Shown here one piece after another: positions 8,918 to 18,369 of a stretch of DNA of 28,657 bases. Where the stretch lies: positions 1 through 28,657 of the forward strand of contig JBCCQY010000115.1 of assembly GCA_039208735.1 (NCBI GenBank), in the 5' to 3' direction. The first letter of the stretch is position 1. Each line of letters begins with the position of its first letter. The translations under genes were made by a program, and so were the position numbers. This DNA comes from Myxococcota bacterium (GTDB lineage: Bacteria; Myxococcota_A; UBA796; GCA-2862545). Under the pieces are notes generated by a model, which saw only the letters and a list, made by a program, of their open reading frames with translations, was not told the DNA's origin and made no database searches.

Positions 8918-10380
8918 TCGAGTTGCTGCGGGGGTTCGGCGAGTTGAGGAGCCTCCGTTACCGCGCGCTTGGGGTCGTGGTGCTGGTCGTGGTGCTCCCC
9001 TTGCTCTGGGTGTGGGCGGTGGGGCCGCTCGAGCAGAACATCGTGTTGAACCTGCGCAAGCGCCTGCGTGACGCGCTTTCCGAGGCGACCCTCGACGGGC
9101 TGGCCTCCTCGAATCGGCTGTCGGAGATCGCGCGAACCCATCGCATCCGCCTGCGGGTGATCGGGCCAGATGGTGCGGTACTCGAAGACTTTGATGAAGT
9201 CGTCAACCAGGACGGTCTCCAAGCCGTCGCCGACCCGTTCTTTGGCCCTGGAGGAGCGCCGACGCTGTCGGAGTTCGACGCTGACCAGCCGCCAGTCGGC
9301 GAGCGCAAGCTGGTTCGTGAAGCCACCGCCACCCCCACTGCATCCTGCCGCGTGGTCGAAAAGGGACTGTTGTTGGCTTGCTCAGCGACCCAGCGCCTTT
9401 CCGACGGGTCGCGGGTTCACGTCATGCGGGGCTCGCCCCGGCTCGTGCGGTCGCTGTACGAAGAGCGCTTTCAGCTGACTGCGGTGACCTTGACGGTCCT
9501 GGGCATCGGCGTGATCGTGGCCGGATGGCTGTCGTGGCGCATGGTGGGCCCCATCGAACAGCTGCGGGATCAAGTGATGGCCCGCACCGAGGGCACCGTG
9601 TCGACCGAGCCCATCCAGGTGGGGCAGGACGACGAGTTTGGACAGTTGGCACGGGCCTTCAATGCGCTCTTAGGGGCGCTCGATGACCGCAATCGGGCCA
9701 ACGCGGAGTTTGCCGCGGATCTCGCCCATGAACTCAAGAATCCCGTCGCTGCAGTGAGGGCCGCCGCCGAGGCACTCGGACCCGGATCGCAAGTTGATGA
9801 GGAACGTCGCCAACGGCTGTTTCGGGTGCTTGACGCCTCGGCGGGACGGCTCGAAGAAGTGATCGGGCAGTTCCTAGACCTGGCTCGCGCGGAAGCCGGG
9901 CTGCCCGACACCGAACGAGAACTCGTCGATCTCCGCGCGTTGGCCGAGGGCGTGATCAGCGTCTACCGCGCCGATGAACGACACAATGGGCTGACGTTTA
10001 CCGTCCAAGGTCCATCGGAGACGGTTTGGGCCGCCGCCGAACGCCTCGAAACCGCCGTCCACAACCTCGTGTCCAATGCGGCCGAGTTTGCCGCACGTTT
10101 CGAGCGCAAACAAGGACCTGCCGTGGGCATCACCATCGAGGCGACCGCGGCCCAGGCCATCCTGCGCGTGAGCGACACCGGACCTGGGATTCCGCTAGCC
10201 GACCGGGAGCGGGTGTTCGATCGCTACGTCACCACACGCGAGAACGGGACAGGACTTGGTCTGGCATTGACCAAGGCCATCGTTCACGCGCACGGGGGCA
10301 CGATCGAGTTGGAAGGACCGCCTGAGGGAGGCACCACCATGGTGGTGCGGCTTCCTCGAGGAAGTCAGGCCACTTCTTGA
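8914..10380 (+). CDS. Membrane sensor histidine kinase with HAMP domain, ChvG/CreC-like
   Basis: Two TM segments, HAMP (DEFGQLARAFN), H-box DLAHELKNP, N-box NLVSNA, G1 DTGPGI, G2 GTGLGL. GTGA overlap with the regulator. Confidence 0.94.
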   Translation: MIELLRGFGELRSLRYRALGVVVLVVVLPLLWVWAVGPLEQNIVLNLRKRLRDALSEATLDGLASSNRLSEIARTHRIRLRVIGPDGAVLEDFDEVVNQDGLQAVADPFFGPGGAPTLSEFDADQPPVGERKLVREATATPTASCRVVEKGLLLACSATQRLSDGSRVHVMRGSPRLVRSLYEERFQLTAVTLTVLGIGVIVAGWLSWRMVGPIEQLRDQVMARTEGTVSTEPIQVGQDDEFGQLARAFNALLGALDDRNRANAEFAADLAHELKNPVAAVRAAAEALGPGSQVDEERRQRLFRVLDASAGRLEEVIGQFLDLARAEAGLPDTERELVDLRALAEGVISVYRADERHNGLTFTVQGPSETVWAAAERLETAVHNLVSNAAEFAARFERKQGPAVGITIEATAAQAILRVSDTGPGIPLADRERVFDRYVTTRENGTGLGLALTKAIVHAHGGTIELEGPPEGGTTMVVRLPRGSQATS

Positions 10381-10781
10381 GTGGCCGCGGCGGCTTCCGC
10401 CCGGTTCCGCGCCTCTTCCTTGAACAAACGCATTTCCGCGATGAGCGACTTGCGGTTGATTTCAGGAAGGTGTGGGAGCGCTGATGCGACCTCAGACAGG
10501 ACCTCAGCGCACTCGTCGTCGAGTCCCATGGCGCGGTCGGGATTTTCACGATCCCAAACCTCGTCCTTGGTGACGGGCTTCCAGAACACGACGTCGATGC
10601 GGTAGCCCAAGGCTCCTGCCCAAGCGACTAGTTGCTCGACGCGCAAGCTGCGAAGCCCGCGTTCCAGTCGCGACACAGCCGAAATGGACGAGCCAACCGC
10701 CTTCGCGACGATGTCTTGAGGCGCCCTCTGGGCTCGGCGCATGGCGCGGAGCCGCGAAGCGACCTGCTTACCGAAAGACAT
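10365..10781 (-). CDS. XRE-family helix-turn-helix transcriptional regulator
   Basis: LRAMRRAQRAPQDIVAKAVGSSISAVSRLERG..L HTH; GGAGG RBS; acidic helical C-terminal extension. Confidence 0.88.
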   Translation of the reverse strand: MSFGKQVASRLRAMRRAQRAPQDIVAKAVGSSISAVSRLERGLRSLRVEQLVAWAGALGYRIDVVFWKPVTKDEVWDRENPDRAMGLDDECAEVLSEVASALPHLPEINRKSLIAEMRLFKEEARNRAEAAAATQEVA

Positions 10782-10878
10782 TCGTTCCTCCAGGAAGAAA
10801 CCAGGGATGGGCCTGATTCTCCACGTGGTACCTCTTCACGGCCAGTTTTGATATCACGACAAAGATGAGCATCGCAAG

Positions 10879-10957
10879 AAAAAACGGGGACTCGCCAGGA
10901 TCGAGGAGCGTGCTCGTCGGGAAGGATGACCGCGCAAAACCCTCGGCGAGTCCCCGT
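10879..10957 (-). terminator. Large inverted repeat followed by a U-tract (terminator-like or structured RNA)
   Basis: ACGGGGACTCGCC (10884-10896) and GGCGAGTCCCCGT (10945-10957) are perfect reverse complements. The A6 run at 10879-10884 reads as a U-tract on the minus strand. The element starts 1 nt after the stop of the 10959-11438 gene. The 48-nt loop is atypical for a terminator. Confidence 0.55.
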
Positions 10958-10958
10958 G

Positions 10959-11438
10959 TCAACGACGCACGGATTGCGCTTCACGAACCTGATCGCGAAG
11001 CACTTGGACCGACGTCAAATCTCGTCGCCGCAGGGGGTCGACAAGTTCACGGGAACCCAAACCGAGATCCTCTCTCCTCGAAGGGGCCACGCTTACCACA
11101 GTGAACAACGACGTCCAGCTTGGCTGTCCCCGATCGTCGAGAAAGATCACGACCTCGTCACCTCGAGACCAAAGGGGAAGGCCAGAAACGCGCTGGGTCA
11201 ATCCGCCGGATCGCCCCCCGGGCAAGACGAACTCGATCGCCCCTCTGGCATCTCCGCGCCAGGTTTCCGTCACAGAGACCTGGTACGTCGTGCACAATCC
11301 CAATGCACAGGGTTCGCTTTGGGTACCCATCACGATCCCTTCCACCACAGCCGCACTGCGACGGTTCAAGGCTTCGATGGTGGGAACGTCCACGAATGTG
11401 GAAGCGTGTGCCATCGAAACGAACAGCCATCCGGTCAT
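10959..11438 (-). CDS. Putative secreted protein translationally coupled to the matrixin protease
   Basis: Signal-like MTGWLFVSMAHA; beta-rich body with VVEGIV, VSVTETWRG, LPGG and GDEVVIFL; ATGA overlap with the protease stop; GAGGT RBS. Confidence 0.8.
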   Translation of the reverse strand: MTGWLFVSMAHASTFVDVPTIEALNRRSAAVVEGIVMGTQSEPCALGLCTTYQVSVTETWRGDARGAIEFVLPGGRSGGLTQRVSGLPLWSRGDEVVIFLDDRGQPSWTSLFTVVSVAPSRREDLGLGSRELVDPLRRRDLTSVQVLRDQVREAQSVRR

Positions 11439-12136
11439 GGTTCACCTCGGCGGTAGAGGAAGGCCAGCGTGAGGAGCCCGGCCCATGACGCTCCGGTCGG
11501 ACCAACCGCGATGGCATTGCAGCCGCTCGACGACTCATCGGTCGCACCGGTGTCCTCTGGGGCCGCGGGCGGCGAATCATATAGGTAGCGAGCGGCTTCC
11601 TGGTCATCGCTGTCGAGGACCCGTCGCTGGACGTCCCCCGGCTCGTGCTTGGCGAACATGGTCGCTTCGGCGACTTCGCTATGACCAATGCCCAGTACGT
11701 GTCCCACTTCGTGGGTGATCGCAGCTTGCAGATCGAACGCGTCCTTCGCGCCGGTGGTCGACCACGGAATGGTGGCATTGATGTAGATGTCGTACTGAAC
11801 GATGTGGCCTGCGTCGTCCGCCCAGGACGTGGTAATGGCCAGTGCTTCATTGCCGGCAGGCCAGTCCGTGGTGAAGAAGACGAGATTTTCGTCGTCGAGG
11901 GCGACCTCGGGAGCGAGCGACGAGGTTTGTTTCTCAGCGAAGACATAGGCGTCGTCGACGTTGGCCCAGGCATCGAAGGAGGCGTCAATCGCCGTTTCAA
12001 GCCCATTTAGGTTCGGGGCGTCGCCTTCGACCCAAGCGTAGGTGACGGGCATCTCGAAGAAGCGCATTTCCTCACCCGTGGGCAAGGTTTGCACCTCGAA
12101 GGCGAGCGCGAGGCTCGTCCAAACGATCGTCGTCAT
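11435..12136 (-). CDS. Matrixin-family (M10, metzincin) zinc metalloprotease with MYXO-CTERM-like tail
   Basis: HExxHxxGxxH motif HEVGHVLGIGH, Met-turn ATMFA, signal-like MTTIVWTSLALA, and C-terminal SSGC...WAGLLTLAFLYRR. AAGGA precedes ATG 12136. Confidence 0.9.
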   Translation of the reverse strand: MTTIVWTSLALAFEVQTLPTGEEMRFFEMPVTYAWVEGDAPNLNGLETAIDASFDAWANVDDAYVFAEKQTSSLAPEVALDDENLVFFTTDWPAGNEALAITTSWADDAGHIVQYDIYINATIPWSTTGAKDAFDLQAAITHEVGHVLGIGHSEVAEATMFAKHEPGDVQRRVLDSDDQEAARYLYDSPPAAPEDTGATDESSSGCNAIAVGPTGASWAGLLTLAFLYRRGEP

Positions 12137-12309
12137 TGCGATTTCCTTCGCCGCGCCCCCAAGCCGGGGGATGACCCCGTTGTCGGTCCGGACCAATTTT
12201 CGTTTGAGGCGAGCGACGGTTCGGAGCTGGGGGACGGTTAATGAACCAGCGGAACCAACGGGCTTCGACCTCGCCGTGGAGCCACGCGGCGACTTTTCGA
12301 GCGTGACCC

Positions 12310-15300
12310 TTGTTCAACGGTTTTTCCCGCGAAGCGGCTTTGTGGACGTTCGATGCCGCTACGACATCGAACCCGGCCTGGCGTCGCGATGCGGCAGAGG
12401 CCCTGCGCGCGGAGGCACGAAAGACAAGCACGCCCCTGCGCTTGGTCGCACGCCAGGTCGAACCGGTGGGCGATGCGGGCGAGGGGCTGTTCCGCTTGCA
12501 TACCGCGGCGCATGCCCCCTTCGACTGGACCTGGGAAGGTGCGGCCGCCTACCAGCTTCGCGATCCGGACGACCCCACGGATCGGACGTGGTCGGGCGAA
12601 GTTGTCCAGGTCGATGAAGACCGAGGTCAGATCTACCTGTCCCTGACGTTCGGAGCGCTGTGCGAAGGACCGTTTTGGATCCGACCGTTTGGGTTCCTCG
12701 ACGCCTTGGTTGCGCTTTTCCGTCAATCCGAACGTGCACCCGCCACCGCGCAAGGCTTGGACGTTGCGTTGCTTGCCTCGCTGGGGCGAGGACCCAAGGC
12801 CACGACTTCCGGGGAGTCCACCAGTTGGCACCATCCGTGGGGCATTTTGTGGGGGCCACCCGGCACGGGCAAAACCTACTCGATCGGTCGCCAAGTGGCG
12901 CGGGTTCTCCGCCGTGATGACGAACGCATTCTCGTGGTCAGCACGACAAATCGCGCCACTGACGCCGCGGCTCTGCACATCGCAGACGCGCTGCGCGACC
13001 GTGGGTTGCCGCTCGACTTGGTGCGCCGGGTCGGGGCGGCCGCCTCGTTGCATCGTTTTGAGGCCCGGGGGGCTGCGGAACTCGTAGCGGGTGCCGAGGC
13101 GTTTGGACGTCGGCAATTGGCCCGATTGCTCGAGGCACGGCGCACCCATTCGGACCCTGAGGCACGCGCCCGGCTCACCGTCCAGCTCAATGCGACGCGG
13201 CAAGCCATTCGGGAGGCTGCCGGTGCCTTCTTGGACCCACGGCATCGCGTTGTGGTGTGTACGGCGTTTCATGCTCTGCAGAAGACGGTTGATGCGCAGA
13301 TCGCCGCGCTCCGGAGTGCCCAGCGGGCTCCCTTCACCACCGTCGTGATCGATGAAGCGGGCCTTACGAATCGTGCGGTGACCGCCGCATTGGCCCAACT
13401 CGCCGCCCGTCGGGTGTGGCTTGTCGGAGATCCCCGTCAACTCGCTCCGATCGCCCGGGTCGCCCGGGTGCTGCCGTCCTCACAAGCGAGATGGCTCGCC
13501 TCGAGCGGGTTGTCGCACCTTGACCCCGCCAAACCCGTGCCCCCGAACGTCGACGTGCTCACGGTGCAGCATCGGATGGGACCCGCCATTCGCAAGGTGG
13601 TTAGCCACTATGCGTACGAAGGGCGTCTCACCGACGCGGACTCCGTGCTTCACCGCACGTTTGCGGCCGATGGGCGCTTGCTCGCCGAGCCACGCGCCCT
13701 TTGGTACGTCCTCGATGAAGACACGGGAGGGCGGCTCGCCGATATCCGTGCGGAGCGCGGCCCCGGTCATCGCAGCTGGGTGAGGCGACGAACCCAAGCC
13801 GTTCTGCAACGGTTCTTGCAGGCCCATCCTGCCCTCGCGCAACATCGAGCGTTGGTGATGACGCCGTTCAAGGCCCAGGCCCGCGCACTCGACCGGTGGC
13901 TGTCGGAGCGGGGCCTCGCCACCTGGGAGGCATGCACCGTCCATGCACAGCAAGGGGCGGAGGCGCCCTTGGTCTTCTTCGATCCGGTGAATGCAGGGAG
14001 CACCGCCTGGGGCCCGGCGGAGTGGCGGCGCCTCGTGAATGTGGCGTTGAGCCGAGCCCAACATCAGTTGGTGGTCCTTGCGAGCCGACTCGAGATGCAG
14101 GAGCCCTACCTAAGGCCGCTCGCGGACCACCTCGCTCCTCGCGTCCTCGAGGGCCATGGCACGTCGTGGACCTACCGAGCCGTGCCTGGCGTGTCGGGGC
14201 CCATCGAGACGCTGGTGGCGGCTGAGGCGCCGCTTGGCGCGCAATTCGCCGCCCGACGGACGCTGAAGCCCGTGTTGTCGCGCGAACAAGAGCGGCTTTG
14301 CGCCATGCCCCTCGATGGTCGCCCCCGGCTCGTGCGAGGGGTCGCGGGCAGTGGCAAGACCTGGGTGTTGGGGCATTGGCTGGCCCGAACCCTGCGCGAG
14401 AATGGAACGGGGCGCGCATTCGTTGTGTTCGCCAATCGGGCGCTGCAAGGGTTGCTGGCCTCGATCATCACCGAGGCATGGTCCGAACTCGAGCCCACCC
14501 GACCGCTTCCGGTGGAGCGCTTCGTGCTTTGGCACATTCGCGACTTGCTCGACGAGCTTTTGGTCGAGGAGGGCCTGCCCCCCGTCGAGGGCTACGACTT
14601 CGATGCCGCGACCACGACGTACCTAGCGGCGGTCCCCGATTGGGCGAATCGGCCGCGTTGTGCGTCGTTGTTTGTCGATGAAGCGCAAGATCTCGGTCCC
14701 ATGACCCTTCGTTTGCTCACCGGGTTGGTGCGCCCTGCCACGCCGCGCGCCACCCAGCGGCCCATCCACATCTTCTACGACAACGCCCAAGACCTCTACG
14801 GACGCGGCATGCCGCGGTGGTCAGACCTCGGCATTGCCATTCGCGGCCGCACGACGGTCCTTCAGGAGTCGTTTCGCGGCACACGTCCCATCGCTGAGTT
14901 CGCATTGAACACGCTCGGCCAACTCGTCGACCTCGACCGAGACCCCGATCATCGGGAACTTCTGGAGCGAGGGCTGGTGTGGCAGGACGATGGCGTGCTT
15001 CGCGTCGGGTTCAACCAAAGCGACGGCCCTCGGCCGACCTTTGCCGTCTTCGACGATCGGATCGACGAGTGTGAAGCACTGGGCGACCAGATCCTCGAAT
15101 GGCTGCAACGCGAGGCCATTCGGCCGTGTGACATTCGGGTGCTCGCCAACTCGTCCGAGGTTCGTGAGGCGGTGGTCGACCATCTTGCCCCGCGACTGGC
15201 CCCGCTGGGAGTGGTCGTCGAGGCTCAAGCCCGCCAGACCCTCTCGACCGATGCTCGGACGCTCGTGGTGACGACAGCACATTCGTTCAAGGGTCATGAG

Positions 15301-15774
15301 GCCGAGATCATCGCCGTGCCGGGAGCCGACCGGTTCGTCGCGCGACGTTCCGCGAGTCCCCTGTTGGCGCGGGCCTTGTATGTGGCGCTGACGCGAGCCC
15401 GTTCGATCCTTTACGTGTCGGCCCGAACGCCGGTGGATGAGGTGGGTGCGGCCGCGTCGTCCCGCATCATCACCGCGTTGCGGCGGGCCCACGCCATCCC
15501 CGCGTCATCCCTCATCGCGTCCGACCTTCATCTCGTCGAGCGAGTCCCCACCGAACACCGCACGTGGTTTCGGAAGCTGGCCCGGCAGTTTCGCGTGACC
15601 GACGAGCCCATTCGTGACCGTCACGGCAGCATTGTTGCGCAGCCGCTGTTCGTCGTGCGTGACGGGGAGCGTCGTTTGGCCTGCTTTGGCCAGGCGGTGC
15701 CGCGCGCGGTGGTGGCGGACCTCGAAGATCACGGTGTGGAATTGATCGAACTTGGAGCGAGGTCCTTCGCGTAG
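12310..15774 (+). CDS. Tandem superfamily-1 helicase: Upf1/DNA2-like module fused to UvrD-like module
   Basis: Module 1: GPPGTGKT, STTNRATD, IDEAG, VGDPRQLAP, QHRM, TVHAQQGAE, NVALSRA. Module 2: LSREQ, GVAGSGKT, VDEAQD, YDNAQDLY, ESFRGT, TAHSFKGHE, YVALTRAR. The TTG start is uncertain. Confidence 0.9.
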   Translation: MFNGFSREAALWTFDAATTSNPAWRRDAAEALRAEARKTSTPLRLVARQVEPVGDAGEGLFRLHTAAHAPFDWTWEGAAAYQLRDPDDPTDRTWSGEVVQVDEDRGQIYLSLTFGALCEGPFWIRPFGFLDALVALFRQSERAPATAQGLDVALLASLGRGPKATTSGESTSWHHPWGILWGPPGTGKTYSIGRQVARVLRRDDERILVVSTTNRATDAAALHIADALRDRGLPLDLVRRVGAAASLHRFEARGAAELVAGAEAFGRRQLARLLEARRTHSDPEARARLTVQLNATRQAIREAAGAFLDPRHRVVVCTAFHALQKTVDAQIAALRSAQRAPFTTVVIDEAGLTNRAVTAALAQLAARRVWLVGDPRQLAPIARVARVLPSSQARWLASSGLSHLDPAKPVPPNVDVLTVQHRMGPAIRKVVSHYAYEGRLTDADSVLHRTFAADGRLLAEPRALWYVLDEDTGGRLADIRAERGPGHRSWVRRRTQAVLQRFLQAHPALAQHRALVMTPFKAQARALDRWLSERGLATWEACTVHAQQGAEAPLVFFDPVNAGSTAWGPAEWRRLVNVALSRAQHQLVVLASRLEMQEPYLRPLADHLAPRVLEGHGTSWTYRAVPGVSGPIETLVAAEAPLGAQFAARRTLKPVLSREQERLCAMPLDGRPRLVRGVAGSGKTWVLGHWLARTLRENGTGRAFVVFANRALQGLLASIITEAWSELEPTRPLPVERFVLWHIRDLLDELLVEEGLPPVEGYDFDAATTTYLAAVPDWANRPRCASLFVDEAQDLGPMTLRLLTGLVRPATPRATQRPIHIFYDNAQDLYGRGMPRWSDLGIAIRGRTTVLQESFRGTRPIAEFALNTLGQLVDLDRDPDHRELLERGLVWQDDGVLRVGFNQSDGPRPTFAVFDDRIDECEALGDQILEWLQREAIRPCDIRVLANSSEVREAVVDHLAPRLAPLGVVVEAQARQTLSTDARTLVVTTAHSFKGHEAEIIAVPGADRFVARRSASPLLARALYVALTRARSILYVSARTPVDEVGAAASSRIITALRRAHAIPASSLIASDLHLVERVPTEHRTWFRKLARQFRVTDEPIRDRHGSIVAQPLFVVRDGERRLACFGQAVPRAVVADLEDHGVELIELGARSFA

Positions 15775-16265
15775 TGCACGTCACAGCCACCGTGCCCCGT
15801 CTGCCCCCACGGACCGTCGAGTCGCCGAAAGCCGAACCGCTCATACAACGCTTGGGCCGAGGTCATGTTGCCCATCGTCTCGAGGTAGAGGTGGCGAAAT
15901 CCAGCCTTGCGCGCACCTTCGATGAGGTGCTGGAGCAATCGGCGTCCCAGACCTTGGCCGCGGACGCTCGCATAAAGGTACATCTTGCGAAGTTCTGCGA
16001 CGTCGGAAGGGCCGCCTTCAAGCGGGGCAAAGCCTCCGCCACCTACGATGTTGCCGCGTGCGTCTTCGATGACCACATAGGCGTGGCCTGGACCGGCGTA
16101 AGCCTCGGCCATCGCGTCCACTTCGGGGTCTGACAGCGCGAAACCTGGCCCTACGGCTCCGAATTCGGGCATCACGGTGTGGATGACCTCGCGAACTGCA
16201 GAATTGTCGGAAGTGGTCATCGAACGCAGGCGCAACGTTGCCCCCTGTGCGGGGCCGATCCGCAT
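15729..16265 (-). CDS. GNAT-family N-acetyltransferase, YjgM-like
   Basis: DNSAVREVI..VMPEFG, GGGGFAPL, ELRKMYL, RGQGLG, YLET, AQALYERFGF and TGHGGCD. Start is ATG 16265 or 16220. The 3' end overlaps the helicase 3' end by 46 nt. Confidence 0.9.
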   Translation of the reverse strand: MRIGPAQGATLRLRSMTTSDNSAVREVIHTVMPEFGAVGPGFALSDPEVDAMAEAYAGPGHAYVVIEDARGNIVGGGGFAPLEGGPSDVAELRKMYLYASVRGQGLGRRLLQHLIEGARKAGFRHLYLETMGNMTSAQALYERFGFRRLDGPWGQTGHGGCDVHYAKDLAPSSINSTP

Positions 16266-17412: not shown

Positions 17413-18369
17413 CTACTCGGGCTCATCCCACGACAGCAGTTGGATGTTGACGAGGGCTGCGACCTCGGGTCGGCTGTTGGCCACGATCGACCGCACCTCC
17501 ATGAAGTACCGGATGTGGGCCTCACGAATGCGCTCGAGGTCTTCCCGCGACACGGCGACCACGTTGTAGCTGACCATGTCACCGTCGTGTGGCGCGGTGG
17601 CCCGGGCGAGCCCCTGGGCCGCCCAATGCGCCTTGAGGCGTTTCGTGCCTTCTGGATCGGCGACCGCATCGATGGTGAGGGCATCTCGGGTGCGGTACGG
17701 TCGAATGCCGGTACGCATGATGAGCCCTGCGTTCTCAAGGCGGCTTAGACAGCGACGTTCCACGGTTTCGTCGACTCCGAGGATGCGTGCGATGAGCCCG
17801 GGCTCGTGGGTGGCGCGACGTTGGTAGGTCTCGGTCTCGATGACGCACATCACCGCGCCGACCCAAGGCTCATCGAACGCGATGCGCTTCGAGGCGTGCC
17901 GCTGGTGATGGGCGGCCCGTAAAGCCTCGATGCGATCGATGTCGACGAGTTCGGCCAACAGATCGGACAGTCGCCCCGTCAGTGCCTCCACAAGCCTTAG
18001 GAAGTCCGGCAGCCGCGGCCGGGTGTCGCCGGCAATCCAGCGCGAGACGGCGTAGCGTGATGCGCCTACGCGTTCGGCGAGCACCTTGAGGGCGGTATTG
18101 CCGCGCAAGGCTTGGAGCCACGCGGCGACGCCTGCGTCATCTCCGTCGCCAATGGCGGGTGCTTCTTCAGGGGAAAAGCGCGCGAAGGCGTCGCCGACCT
18201 CAATCCCGACCATGTGACATGCCCGAATCGTCTCGGCTGCGGTCGGGAATCGCCGTCCCGCCTCCCAGTCACTTACGGGATTGGACGAGTACCCGAGACG
18301 CCGAGACAGCGCTTCCTGCGACCGGCGCCCGCGAATGGCCCGGATGAGCTGACGTGCCACCAACTCCAT
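17413..18369 (-). CDS. Tandem XRE-HTH protein with DUF4423-like C-terminal domain
   Basis: Two HTH repeats (RGRRSQEALSRRLGYSSNPVSDWEAGRRFP; RGNTALKVLAERVGASRYAVSRWIAGDTRP), a winged-helix-like segment (IARILGVDETVERRCLSRLENAGLI), and C-terminal VAVSREDLERIRE...ALVNIQLL. Confidence 0.8.
   Translation of the reverse strand: MELVARQLIRAIRGRRSQEALSRRLGYSSNPVSDWEAGRRFPTAAETIRACHMVGIEVGDAFARFSPEEAPAIGDGDDAGVAAWLQALRGNTALKVLAERVGASRYAVSRWIAGDTRPRLPDFLRLVEALTGRLSDLLAELVDIDRIEALRAAHHQRHASKRIAFDEPWVGAVMCVIETETYQRRATHEPGLIARILGVDETVERRCLSRLENAGLIMRTGIRPYRTRDALTIDAVADPEGTKRLKAHWAAQGLARATAPHDGDMVSYNVVAVSREDLERIREAHIRYFMEVRSIVANSRPEVAALVNIQLLSWDEPE

Follow-up and report, generated by a model that had tools for sequence, protein, structure and literature searches.

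A single bacterial polypeptide with an Upf1-like and a compact UvrD-like SF1 motor, a candidate two-motor defence helicase

A gene of a Myxococcota bacterium encodes two SF1 motors of different types in one protein, both with intact catalytic residues, and the family it belongs to has an architecture for which the profile libraries and literature searched gave no described match. The gene (12310..15774, forward strand; 1,154 aa, TTG start) lies in the window, the whole 28,657-nucleotide stretch of DNA analysed here, and joins an Upf1/IGHMBP2-like motor (motor 1) to a compact UvrD-like motor (motor 2). Our preferred reading, at a probability of about 0.38, is that the two motors would move in the same direction on opposite strands of a duplex, and that the protein likely provides an accessory defence, encoded by one gene, against phages or other mobile DNA.

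The gene is a single frame with no internal stop, and a same-genus orthologue aligns from residue 1, matching the assigned start. Pfam domains AAA_12 (E = 6e-22), AAA_11 (E = 9e-16) and, in two stretches, UvrD_C_2 were detected, well above chance level. In the AlphaFold2 model (pLDDT 90.7, pTM 0.88), structure comparison aligns Upf1-type structures to residues 18-630 and UvrD to residues 654-1065. Between them lies a short, less conserved linker (residues 631-653; 14200..14268, forward strand), in which pLDDT falls to 63 and identity to the orthologue is 44%, compared with 73% and 68% in the two cores. The two complete motif sets described in the original prediction are present (Walker A 12853-12876, DEAG 13351 and NVALSRA 14038; Walker A 14338-14361, DEAQD 14677 and YVALTRAR 15379), the Walker A Lys, Walker B DE and motif VI Arg occur in both modules, and profile and structure matches agree with the proposed assignment of the modules as Upf1-like and UvrD-like. 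All 12 catalytic residues checked are kept in 190/192 proteins of ≥1,000 aa (query included), a set picked by score against the full-length query and thus favouring intact members. It is nearly certain that this is a single gene with both ATPase sites under selection.

Motor 1 comprises an Upf1/IGHMBP2-like SF1B core (residues 171-630; 12820..14199, forward strand), identified by Pfam, profile and structure matches, and a preceding helical stalk and 1B beta-barrel (residues 18-170; 12361..12819, forward strand), identified from the predicted structure and the Upf1/IGHMBP2 alignment. That alignment begins at residue 18-19, is ~507 residues long in the structure comparison, and takes in the stalk, 1B beta-barrel and 1C insertion; in the model, a helix (22-40) is followed by strands (43-125). 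Two RecA folds with Upf1-type motifs I-VI are present. AAA_11 and AAA_12 exceed their cut-offs, and the motifs are conserved (Walker A as above; Walker B 13351-13362; motif III 13426-13443; motif VI 14038-14058, all on the forward strand), with K188, D348, E349, Q377, R422 and R582 kept in 190-192 of the 192 long members. Module 1 matches Upf1, SETX, IGHMBP2 and Dna2, and SETX/Sen1 and HelD are also among the structural matches. Upf1-like enzymes are described as moving 5'→3' and UvrD-like enzymes as moving 3'→5' (excerpt of PMC13238157), and by this analogy motor 1 very probably moves 5'→3' on RNA or ssDNA.

Motor 2 (residues 654-1065; 14269..15504, forward strand) is assigned from profile, structure comparison and motif conservation. 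It has a UvrD-type fold and motifs Q and I-VI (Q motif 14275; Walker A as above; Ia 14428; Walker B 14677; III 14776; IV 14866; V 15274; VI 15379-15402, all on the forward strand). UvrD is its best structural match (Z 31.8, rmsd 3.8, 360 aligned), followed by SLFN11 and SLFN14 (Z 27), with AddA/AdnA also among the matches. In profile comparison, GajB ranks first (E = 8.5e-8), then UvrD1, AddA, PcrA and Rep; when module 2 was compared with PDB sequences as a single sequence, just KaiC P-loops came up, and the family matches required a profile. The 2B subdomain is missing from motor 2, with a motif III to V spacing of 166 aa versus 314 in the genome's own UvrD and ~360 of 650 UvrD residues alignable. 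The separation-pin hairpin of UvrD-type enzymes, which we take to lie in 2A after motif VI, is apparently missing as well, with no hairpin seen there in the secondary structure of the model. Single-strand contacts of UvrD type (aromatic, Arg) appear to be retained: the motif Ia aromatic is kept in 184/192 and motif III residues Y830 and R832 in 177/192 each, while motif III has lost the second of the UvrD aromatics, with a conserved tryptophan, W837, close by (179/192). These Ia and III residues presumably correspond to the single-strand contacts of PcrA.

By analogy with UvrD-like enzymes, the balance tips slightly towards motor 2 being a true 3'→5' translocase. Polarity is not fixed by family, as shown by Nhi (excerpt of 10.1101/776245), and complex prediction with modules 1 and 2 as separate chains scored 0.00, with no verdict either way. 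The main rival explanation is that motor 2 is a GajB- or Schlafen-like sensor of ssDNA or nucleotide that gates motor 1, in which case the protein would run 5'→3' only and would still likely serve in defence; we consider this possible if somewhat unlikely. The missing 2B and visible pin are consistent with such a switch, as are the top-ranking profile match to GajB and the match to SLFN11/14, both reported as non-unwinding. GajB, which has neither 2B nor pin elements, neither unwound nor bound DNA (excerpt of PMC10681800), and SLFN5 and SLFN11 had no ATPase activity although their Walker motifs are intact (excerpt of PMC12135189). However, UvrD scores ~5 Z units above the Schlafens for motor 2, the ATPase residues and Ia/III contacts of motor 2 are nearly invariant, and Rep monomers are activated by deletion of 2B, Rep without 2B still unwinding (excerpt of PMC13238157). 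If motor 2 were a switch, the protein would provide a simple model of the GajB/Schlafen puzzle, in which motifs are intact without unwinding.

In the preferred reading, with two working translocases, motor 1 would start from a single-stranded 5' tail of RNA or DNA and run 5'→3', and motor 2 would follow the opposite, antiparallel DNA strand 3'→5'. The antiparallel arrangement of the strands would make the two motors pull in one direction, as in the RecB and RecD pair. Without 2B or a visible pin, motor 2 would track along its strand as a translocase and leave strand separation to motor 1. As no working nuclease is predicted in the dual helicase, it would unwind or strip an invader's forks, ends or RNA:DNA hybrids rather than cut them. 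A more specific version, which we regard as doubtful, is a single-chain bipolar machine in which a 5'→3' motor able to act on RNA and a 3'→5' motor acting on DNA together grip both strands of an RNA:DNA hybrid or fork and strip phage transcription or replication complexes without cutting; this would be a nuclease-free mechanism of defence and a one-protein counterpart of the RecB/RecD pair. With two different SF1 motors in one natural chain, each switchable by one Lys-to-Ala change, the protein would allow direct tests of how motors are coupled, what sets their polarity and what 2B contributes. If it protects against phages without a nuclease, helicase-based immunity would gain a new mode, in phyla that have been little studied.

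RecBCD is a known multi-subunit example of bipolar unwinding by two motors, and the dual helicase likewise pairs two SF1 motors of different type with predicted opposite strand polarity. Opposite strand polarity is described for RecB and RecD (excerpt of PMC3632103). In contrast to RecBCD, AddAB and AdnAB, whose motors are separate subunits in an operon, the dual helicase is one chain; it also differs from RecBCD in that its 5'→3' motor is Upf1-like rather than RecD-like, it has neither a RecB-type nuclease nor a RecC/Chi scanner, and its distribution is patchy, not housekeeping. Against it, the recB model reaches 20 bits (cut-off 696) and the recD model 18 bits (cut-off 310), and Pfam and NCBIfam detected no RecB nuclease. 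RecBCD/AddAB membership was rejected on the basis of the single ORF, the absence of a recurring partner helicase subunit in 60 homologue loci and the absence of a RecB-family nuclease. The RecBCD-like end processing suggested earlier is without nuclease support, the sole nuclease-like fold being predicted dead and dispensable.

A defence role is fairly probable, by analogy with the neighbourhoods of homologues. Defence genes lie ≤5 kb from the homologue in 8-9/15 loci versus 0/15 controls (Fisher P = 0.002-0.0007), in 8/12 metagenome loci and, as defence neighbours, in 7/11 Planctomycetota loci; one homologue abuts Lamassu genes (L015) and another precedes Shango genes (L182). In the phylum of the window, clear defence neighbours were found in just 1/10 loci. 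The original prediction of a one-gene defence system is supported by this family-level enrichment, whereas no defence island was found at the 12310-15774 locus itself. Across 60 homologue loci, just two tightly linked neighbours recur: an XRE regulator (in 10) and an alpha/beta hydrolase (in 6). As predicted, the gene is oriented against both of its neighbours, which were identified from profile matches and are not part of the system: it is divergent from an upstream matrixin-like metalloprotease gene (11435..12196, reverse strand) and convergent with a downstream GNAT acetyltransferase gene of uncertain start (15729..16265, reverse strand), whose ORF overlaps the helicase 3' end by 46 nt. The GNAT gene did not recur as a neighbour across the 60 loci. 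A sigma-70-like promoter was not found at the helicase locus, and terminators there were not in excess.

The locus is syntenic with one congener at 65-68% identity and is surrounded by housekeeping genes. The matrixin-like gene is kept in 4/4 congeners, and at the helicase site in three congeners the upstream genes are conserved and the entire downstream block is different, with no clean empty site. This synteny, together with the housekeeping surroundings of this and most own-phylum loci, favours accessory genome maintenance rather than defence, in which R-loops, stalled RNA polymerase or RecA filaments would be removed by a Sen1-like motor running 5'→3' on RNA together with a UvrD-like motor running 3'→5' on the template strand; the structural matches to SETX/Sen1 and HelD and the absence of a nuclease are also consistent with it. 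We nevertheless consider this reading unlikely: the family is carried by ~3% of the genomes searched in two phyla (12/401 and 11/401), no helicase match was found in 3/4 congeners searched (two of these genomes being just 80-82% complete), and the defence-island signal in the Planctomycetota loci is strong.

Among stand-alone proteins, those closest to motor 2 are NERD-UvrD proteins (~600 aa; PADLOC C3a187; 25-33% identity), which have an identical Walker A string and the same compact core. They differ in that a 630-residue Upf1-like helicase replaces the N-terminal NERD nuclease in the dual helicase, and PF08378 (NERD) had no match in the query or in the best 120 listed homologues. NERDs are reported to be enriched in defence islands (excerpt of 10.64898/2026.09.30.754977). 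Gabija GajB and the helicase domains of SLFN11/14 have, like motor 2, a UvrD-like core without 2B features, but in the dual helicase this core is fused to a second motor, with no GajA partner among the neighbours scanned and no Schlafen RNase domain. Gabija membership was rejected, as no GajA OLD-family nuclease was among the best PADLOC matches of neighbours in 32 loci and the window. Mokosh MkoA/MkoC, Hhe and CoCoNuT CnuH share the Upf1-like core with stalk and barrel, but the dual helicase lacks their kinase, PLD, DUF4011 or McrB partner domains, and a second motor, of UvrD type, is described in none of them. The MkoA model matches residues 175-590 (E = 9e-39) with its helicase part only (profile 631-1073 of 1,112), and Mokosh/Hhe membership was rejected because the match is confined to the helicase region and the partner domains are absent. 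Brr2/ASCC3, HELZ2 and TraI have two helicase cassettes per chain that arose by duplication of one type, frequently with an inactive copy, whereas the cassettes of the dual helicase come from different SF1 families with catalytic residues intact in both. Nhi (SERP2475) is a single-gene SF1 defence enzyme with bipolar unwinding (excerpt of 10.1101/776245), but it combines one helicase core with an active nuclease. Profile libraries and the literature returned no described single-chain Upf1-like plus UvrD-like architecture, although large defence-candidate tables in paper supplements could list the family under a cluster number.

Type III-B CnuH bears a Vsr-like nuclease (excerpt of PMC11090510), whereas the Vsr-like tail of the dual helicase looks dead. 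This dispensable C-terminal domain (15505..15771, forward strand) is likely a catalytically dead Vsr/DUF559-type PD-(D/E)XK fold, a reading from weak but concordant fold matches (atlas 0.84; VIA Z 4.7; Foldseek E = 0.17). The best structure match has Z 4.7 and rmsd 3.0 over 68 aligned residues, and most top rows are PD-(D/E)XK folds; Foldseek gave no match at E = 0.001 and Pfam gave no family for the tail of 39 members. The 90-aa tail is present in 139/192 long members and missing in 53/192, as well as in the same-genus orthologue. In what we take to be the catalytic register and ExDG-type family motif of Vsr/DUF559/MTES_1575, no conserved acidic catalytic or ExDG-type motif was found in the tail, the aligned positions being E/Q-P-L-F and A-C-F-G. 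An active C-terminal nuclease was rejected on the missing motif and the dispensability of the tail. The dead-looking tail, the NERD nuclease occupying the motor 1 position in stand-alone motor 2 relatives, and the adjoining Lamassu and Shango genes would also suit a motor subunit that has lost its own NERD and Vsr-type activity and passes ssDNA to a nuclease from another gene, either a restriction enzyme or another defence effector. This is quite improbable: no partner nuclease recurs in the 60 loci.

The dual-helicase family comprises at least 572 clusters. Trees of the two modules are congruent (rho 0.89 over 73 proteins; 0/200 permutations as high) with similar branch lengths, and support for a single fused clade is 0.97 with module 1 but just 0.08 with module 2, which therefore does not establish one common origin. 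Homologues are not split into separate genes among the best 120 listed, which cover 86-100% of the query, and the predicted single polypeptide holds as one ORF with full-length homologues. Some shorter relatives, including a few from long contigs, start close to the linker, but a chance or assembly fusion of two adjacent genes has next to no probability given hundreds of full-length homologues, the congruent module trees and the absence of an internal stop within 26 match rows at E = 1e-50 or better (three partial, at or near contig ends). Two genes or a frameshift were likewise rejected on full-length homologues, conserved residues and congruent trees. One contig of the possible source run, not independent evidence, spans the motor junction without difference. 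Phage and plasmid collections had no dual-helicase match at E = 1e-20 and 1e-30, and thus give no sign of carriage on those elements; the 11 loci on viral contigs are all partial matches to module 2 relatives. A scan of a collection of genome contigs with generic Walker A patterns gave one full-length locus among the 55 loci listed.

The dual helicase gene (window 12310-15774, + strand) is a single open frame encoding one polypeptide of 1,154 amino acids, as the original prediction held, and all six motifs that it had named lie at the bases claimed (6/6). Codon-position GC and GC content are uniform along the gene and the same as in the window. Among 40 listed strain differences (with 84 further entries), 24 fall inside the gene, where 16 of 22 codons are synonymous. 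A near-full-length search with 7,995 scored candidates recovered at least 572 clusters at E 1e-10 or better, and the 120 best homologues listed are 40-67% identical at 86-100% query coverage; the few named among these 120 come from Planctomycetota, Blastocatellia and Anaerolinea and are annotated merely as AAA or SF1 helicases. A fragment labelled Myxococcota is 66% identical, and a 50%-identity library yielded 230 representatives at E 1e-30. The 12 checked catalytic residues (K188, D348, E349, Q377, R422 and R582 in motor 1; K683, D790, E791, Q827, R856 and R1029 in motor 2) are all intact in 190 of the 192 proteins of at least 1,000 amino acids (query included, from 270 stored), a set biased toward intact members by its choice on score against the whole query. 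The exceptions are homologues P0173 and P0244 (2,055 amino acids); P0244 has a STAND-like NTPase at its N-terminus and both motors degenerate. Other longer variants are P0168 (1,854 amino acids with a 750-residue N-terminal extension) and P0086 (an N-terminal DnaJ domain). Four short relatives that contain module 2, on contigs of 22-225 kb (P0199, P0280, P0286 and P0284), some beginning near the linker, may be either genes that are naturally split or genes that are broken.

Trees of the two modules from 73 diverse members agree (Spearman 0.89, reached by 0 of 200 permutations) and their mean distances are close (2.9 and 2.8). The stand-alone relatives (13 in the module 1 tree, 19 in the module 2 tree) all fall outside the fused group, which has support of 0.97 and 0.08, respectively. 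No NCBIfam or PADLOC model spans the architecture, and a literature search over listings and the opening lines of abstracts found no description of a combined Upf1-like and UvrD-like protein. Passages of two papers on defence describe single Upf1-like or NERD helicases only (PMC11090510; 10.64898/2026.09.30.754977). The protein belongs to none of RecBCD/AddAB, Gabija, NERD-UvrD or Mokosh/Hhe. We conclude that the family is real, conserved and uncharacterised.

The AlphaFold2 model (120 sequences) reached a pLDDT of 90.7 and a pTM of 0.88. Module 1 (residues 18-630) matches Upf1, SETX, IGHMBP2, Dna2 and Sen1 by fold and sequence, including the stalk and barrel. Module 2 (654-1065) best matches UvrD structurally (Z 31.8, rmsd 3.8, 360 aligned), followed by SLFN11/14 (Z 27) and then PcrA, AddA, Rep and HelD, and a profile search ranked GajB, UvrD1, AddA, PcrA and Rep highest. 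Its closest stand-alone relatives are NERD-UvrD proteins of ~600 amino acids (25-33% identity; PADLOC NERD+UvrD match, E 1e-23), so we infer that the simplest history is one in which an Upf1-like helicase replaced the NERD nuclease. The motif III-to-V span is compact (166 residues versus 314 in UvrD of the same genome), and module 2 therefore lacks 2B; the model has no hairpin after motif VI. The motif Ia aromatic is kept in 184/192 proteins, and Y830 and R832 of motif III each in 177/192; UvrD has a second aromatic in motif III that is deleted here, and the Trp found five residues further on is conserved (179/192). We take these aromatic and Arg positions to correspond to the ssDNA contacts of PcrA.

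The tail (the last 90 residues) is predicted to fold independently (pLDDT 88), with weak signals for a Vsr/DUF559-type nuclease fold from the atlas (score 0.84), VIA (Z 4.7, most top rows of this fold) and Foldseek (E 0.17). Its conserved columns hold no catalytic motif, 139 of 192 proteins carry it and the same-genus orthologue lacks it; we read the modelled tail as a probably dead, dispensable binding domain. A short ORF (L008:1339-1818, on G031:C494) that matches the tail alone (38%, E 5e-9) is preceded by an unrelated gene; it may be either a leftover of the domain or a free-standing version of it.

In the phylum of this genome, 12 of 401 genomes have a match at E 1e-50 or better, as do 11 of 401 sampled Planctomycetota genomes, centre genome included in each. 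A syntenic orthologue is present in one congener out of four, and the other three (82, 95 and 80% complete) gave no match. A tail-less paralogue in the same genome (G000:C141:17731-20934, locus L013/L175; 1,068 amino acids, 43% identical) lies among regulator and hydrolase genes without a PADLOC hit.

Genes within 5 kb of 15 genome loci on long contigs (117 proteins) were scanned with PADLOC at E 1e-15 against 15 control windows (100 proteins) lying on the same contigs at a distance of ~60-85 kb, with heuristic gene calls for both. Any hit was found at 11/15 loci versus 3/15 controls (Fisher p 0.009), at 9/15 versus 0/15 without generic kinases and a sigma-54 activator (p 0.0007), and at 8/15 versus 0/15 when a locus with generic SNF2 hits alone was also removed (p 0.002), these p values being overstated because two genomes contributed two loci each. 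Among the neighbours are DrmD, methyltransferases of types I and III, a complete Lamassu set, Shango, a TIR protein and a ZorA-like gene. Another 17 loci, each flanked by 7 kb or more and taken without controls, included eight clear defence cases, all within the 12 metagenome loci. The defence-island enrichment is seen for the family (8-9/15 versus 0/15) but is uneven, with 1/10 loci in the phylum of this genome (window counted) versus 7/11 Planctomycetota genome loci. In one Planctomycetota genome the dual helicase gene and the end of a Lamassu LmuA-LmuC-LmuB set overlap (L015:6245-13540), and in another the dual helicase precedes Shango SngA-SngB (L182:3803-11324). At L139:10352-16158, a family member has a UG36-type reverse transcriptase and a type I restriction subunit immediately upstream and a TIR/Argonaute-associated gene downstream.

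Across 60 distinct loci (from 76 with a match of at least 500 amino acids), the only tightly linked recurring neighbours were an XRE-type regulator immediately upstream (10/60) and an alpha/beta hydrolase immediately downstream (6/60). The regulator (~110 amino acids, conserved) lies on the same strand, at most 40 bases upstream, at L113, L115, L117, L133, L146, L149, L177, L178 and L186, and 3.7 kb away at L015. It is often divergent from a cluster that combines SNF2/DrmD with a type III methyltransferase or that encodes type I RM, and may control defence islands. The small hydrolase carries C-terminal fusions that vary, and is coupled immediately 3' of the helicase at L119, L127, L139, L177, L157 and L179, overlapping it in the last.

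Upf1-like enzymes move 5'->3' and UvrD-like enzymes 3'->5' according to PMC13238157, and by family motor 1 would run 5'->3' and motor 2 3'->5'. RecB and RecD place opposite-polarity motors on antiparallel strands and travel in the same direction (PMC3632103). On antiparallel strands the two motors would likewise travel one way, and our tentative leading proposal (probability roughly 0.38 for the whole statement) is a non-cutting two-strand translocase on invading DNA that would unwind or strip its forks, ends or RNA:DNA hybrids. The working likeness to RecB/RecD is a prediction only. Nhi shows that a single SF1 core can be bipolar and that the family label may mislead on polarity (10.1101/776245). 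The 2B loss in module 2 cuts both ways. It activates Rep monomers (PMC13238157), but GajB, in which the pin and the 2B elements are lacking, showed neither binding nor unwinding of DNA (PMC10681800), and SLFN5 and SLFN11 have no ATPase although their Walker motifs are intact (PMC12135189). An alternative in which one module is a motor and the other a switch is therefore only somewhat less probable than the leading proposal. A non-defence maintenance role is unlikely, and is kept in view because the window locus and its phylum are poor in defence neighbours. A motor working for a nuclease in trans is less probable still.

At the two-strand translocase candidate's own locus, the gene is opposed to both neighbours, as claimed, being divergent from a matrixin-like metalloprotease gene and convergent with a GNAT acetyltransferase gene. 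A PADLOC scan of six neighbours found nothing beyond a weak GNAT match; one neighbour gave a myxosortase-type match below cut-off, and other window genes encode two-component, radical SAM, MoaC, PilZ and similar proteins. A trio of HTH, 159-residue unknown and matrixin-like genes (10365-12196, - strand) is kept in 4/4 congeners. The product of 17413-18369 (- strand), which combines DUF4423 with two HTH domains, is 83% identical in the congener, above the conservation of its neighbours.
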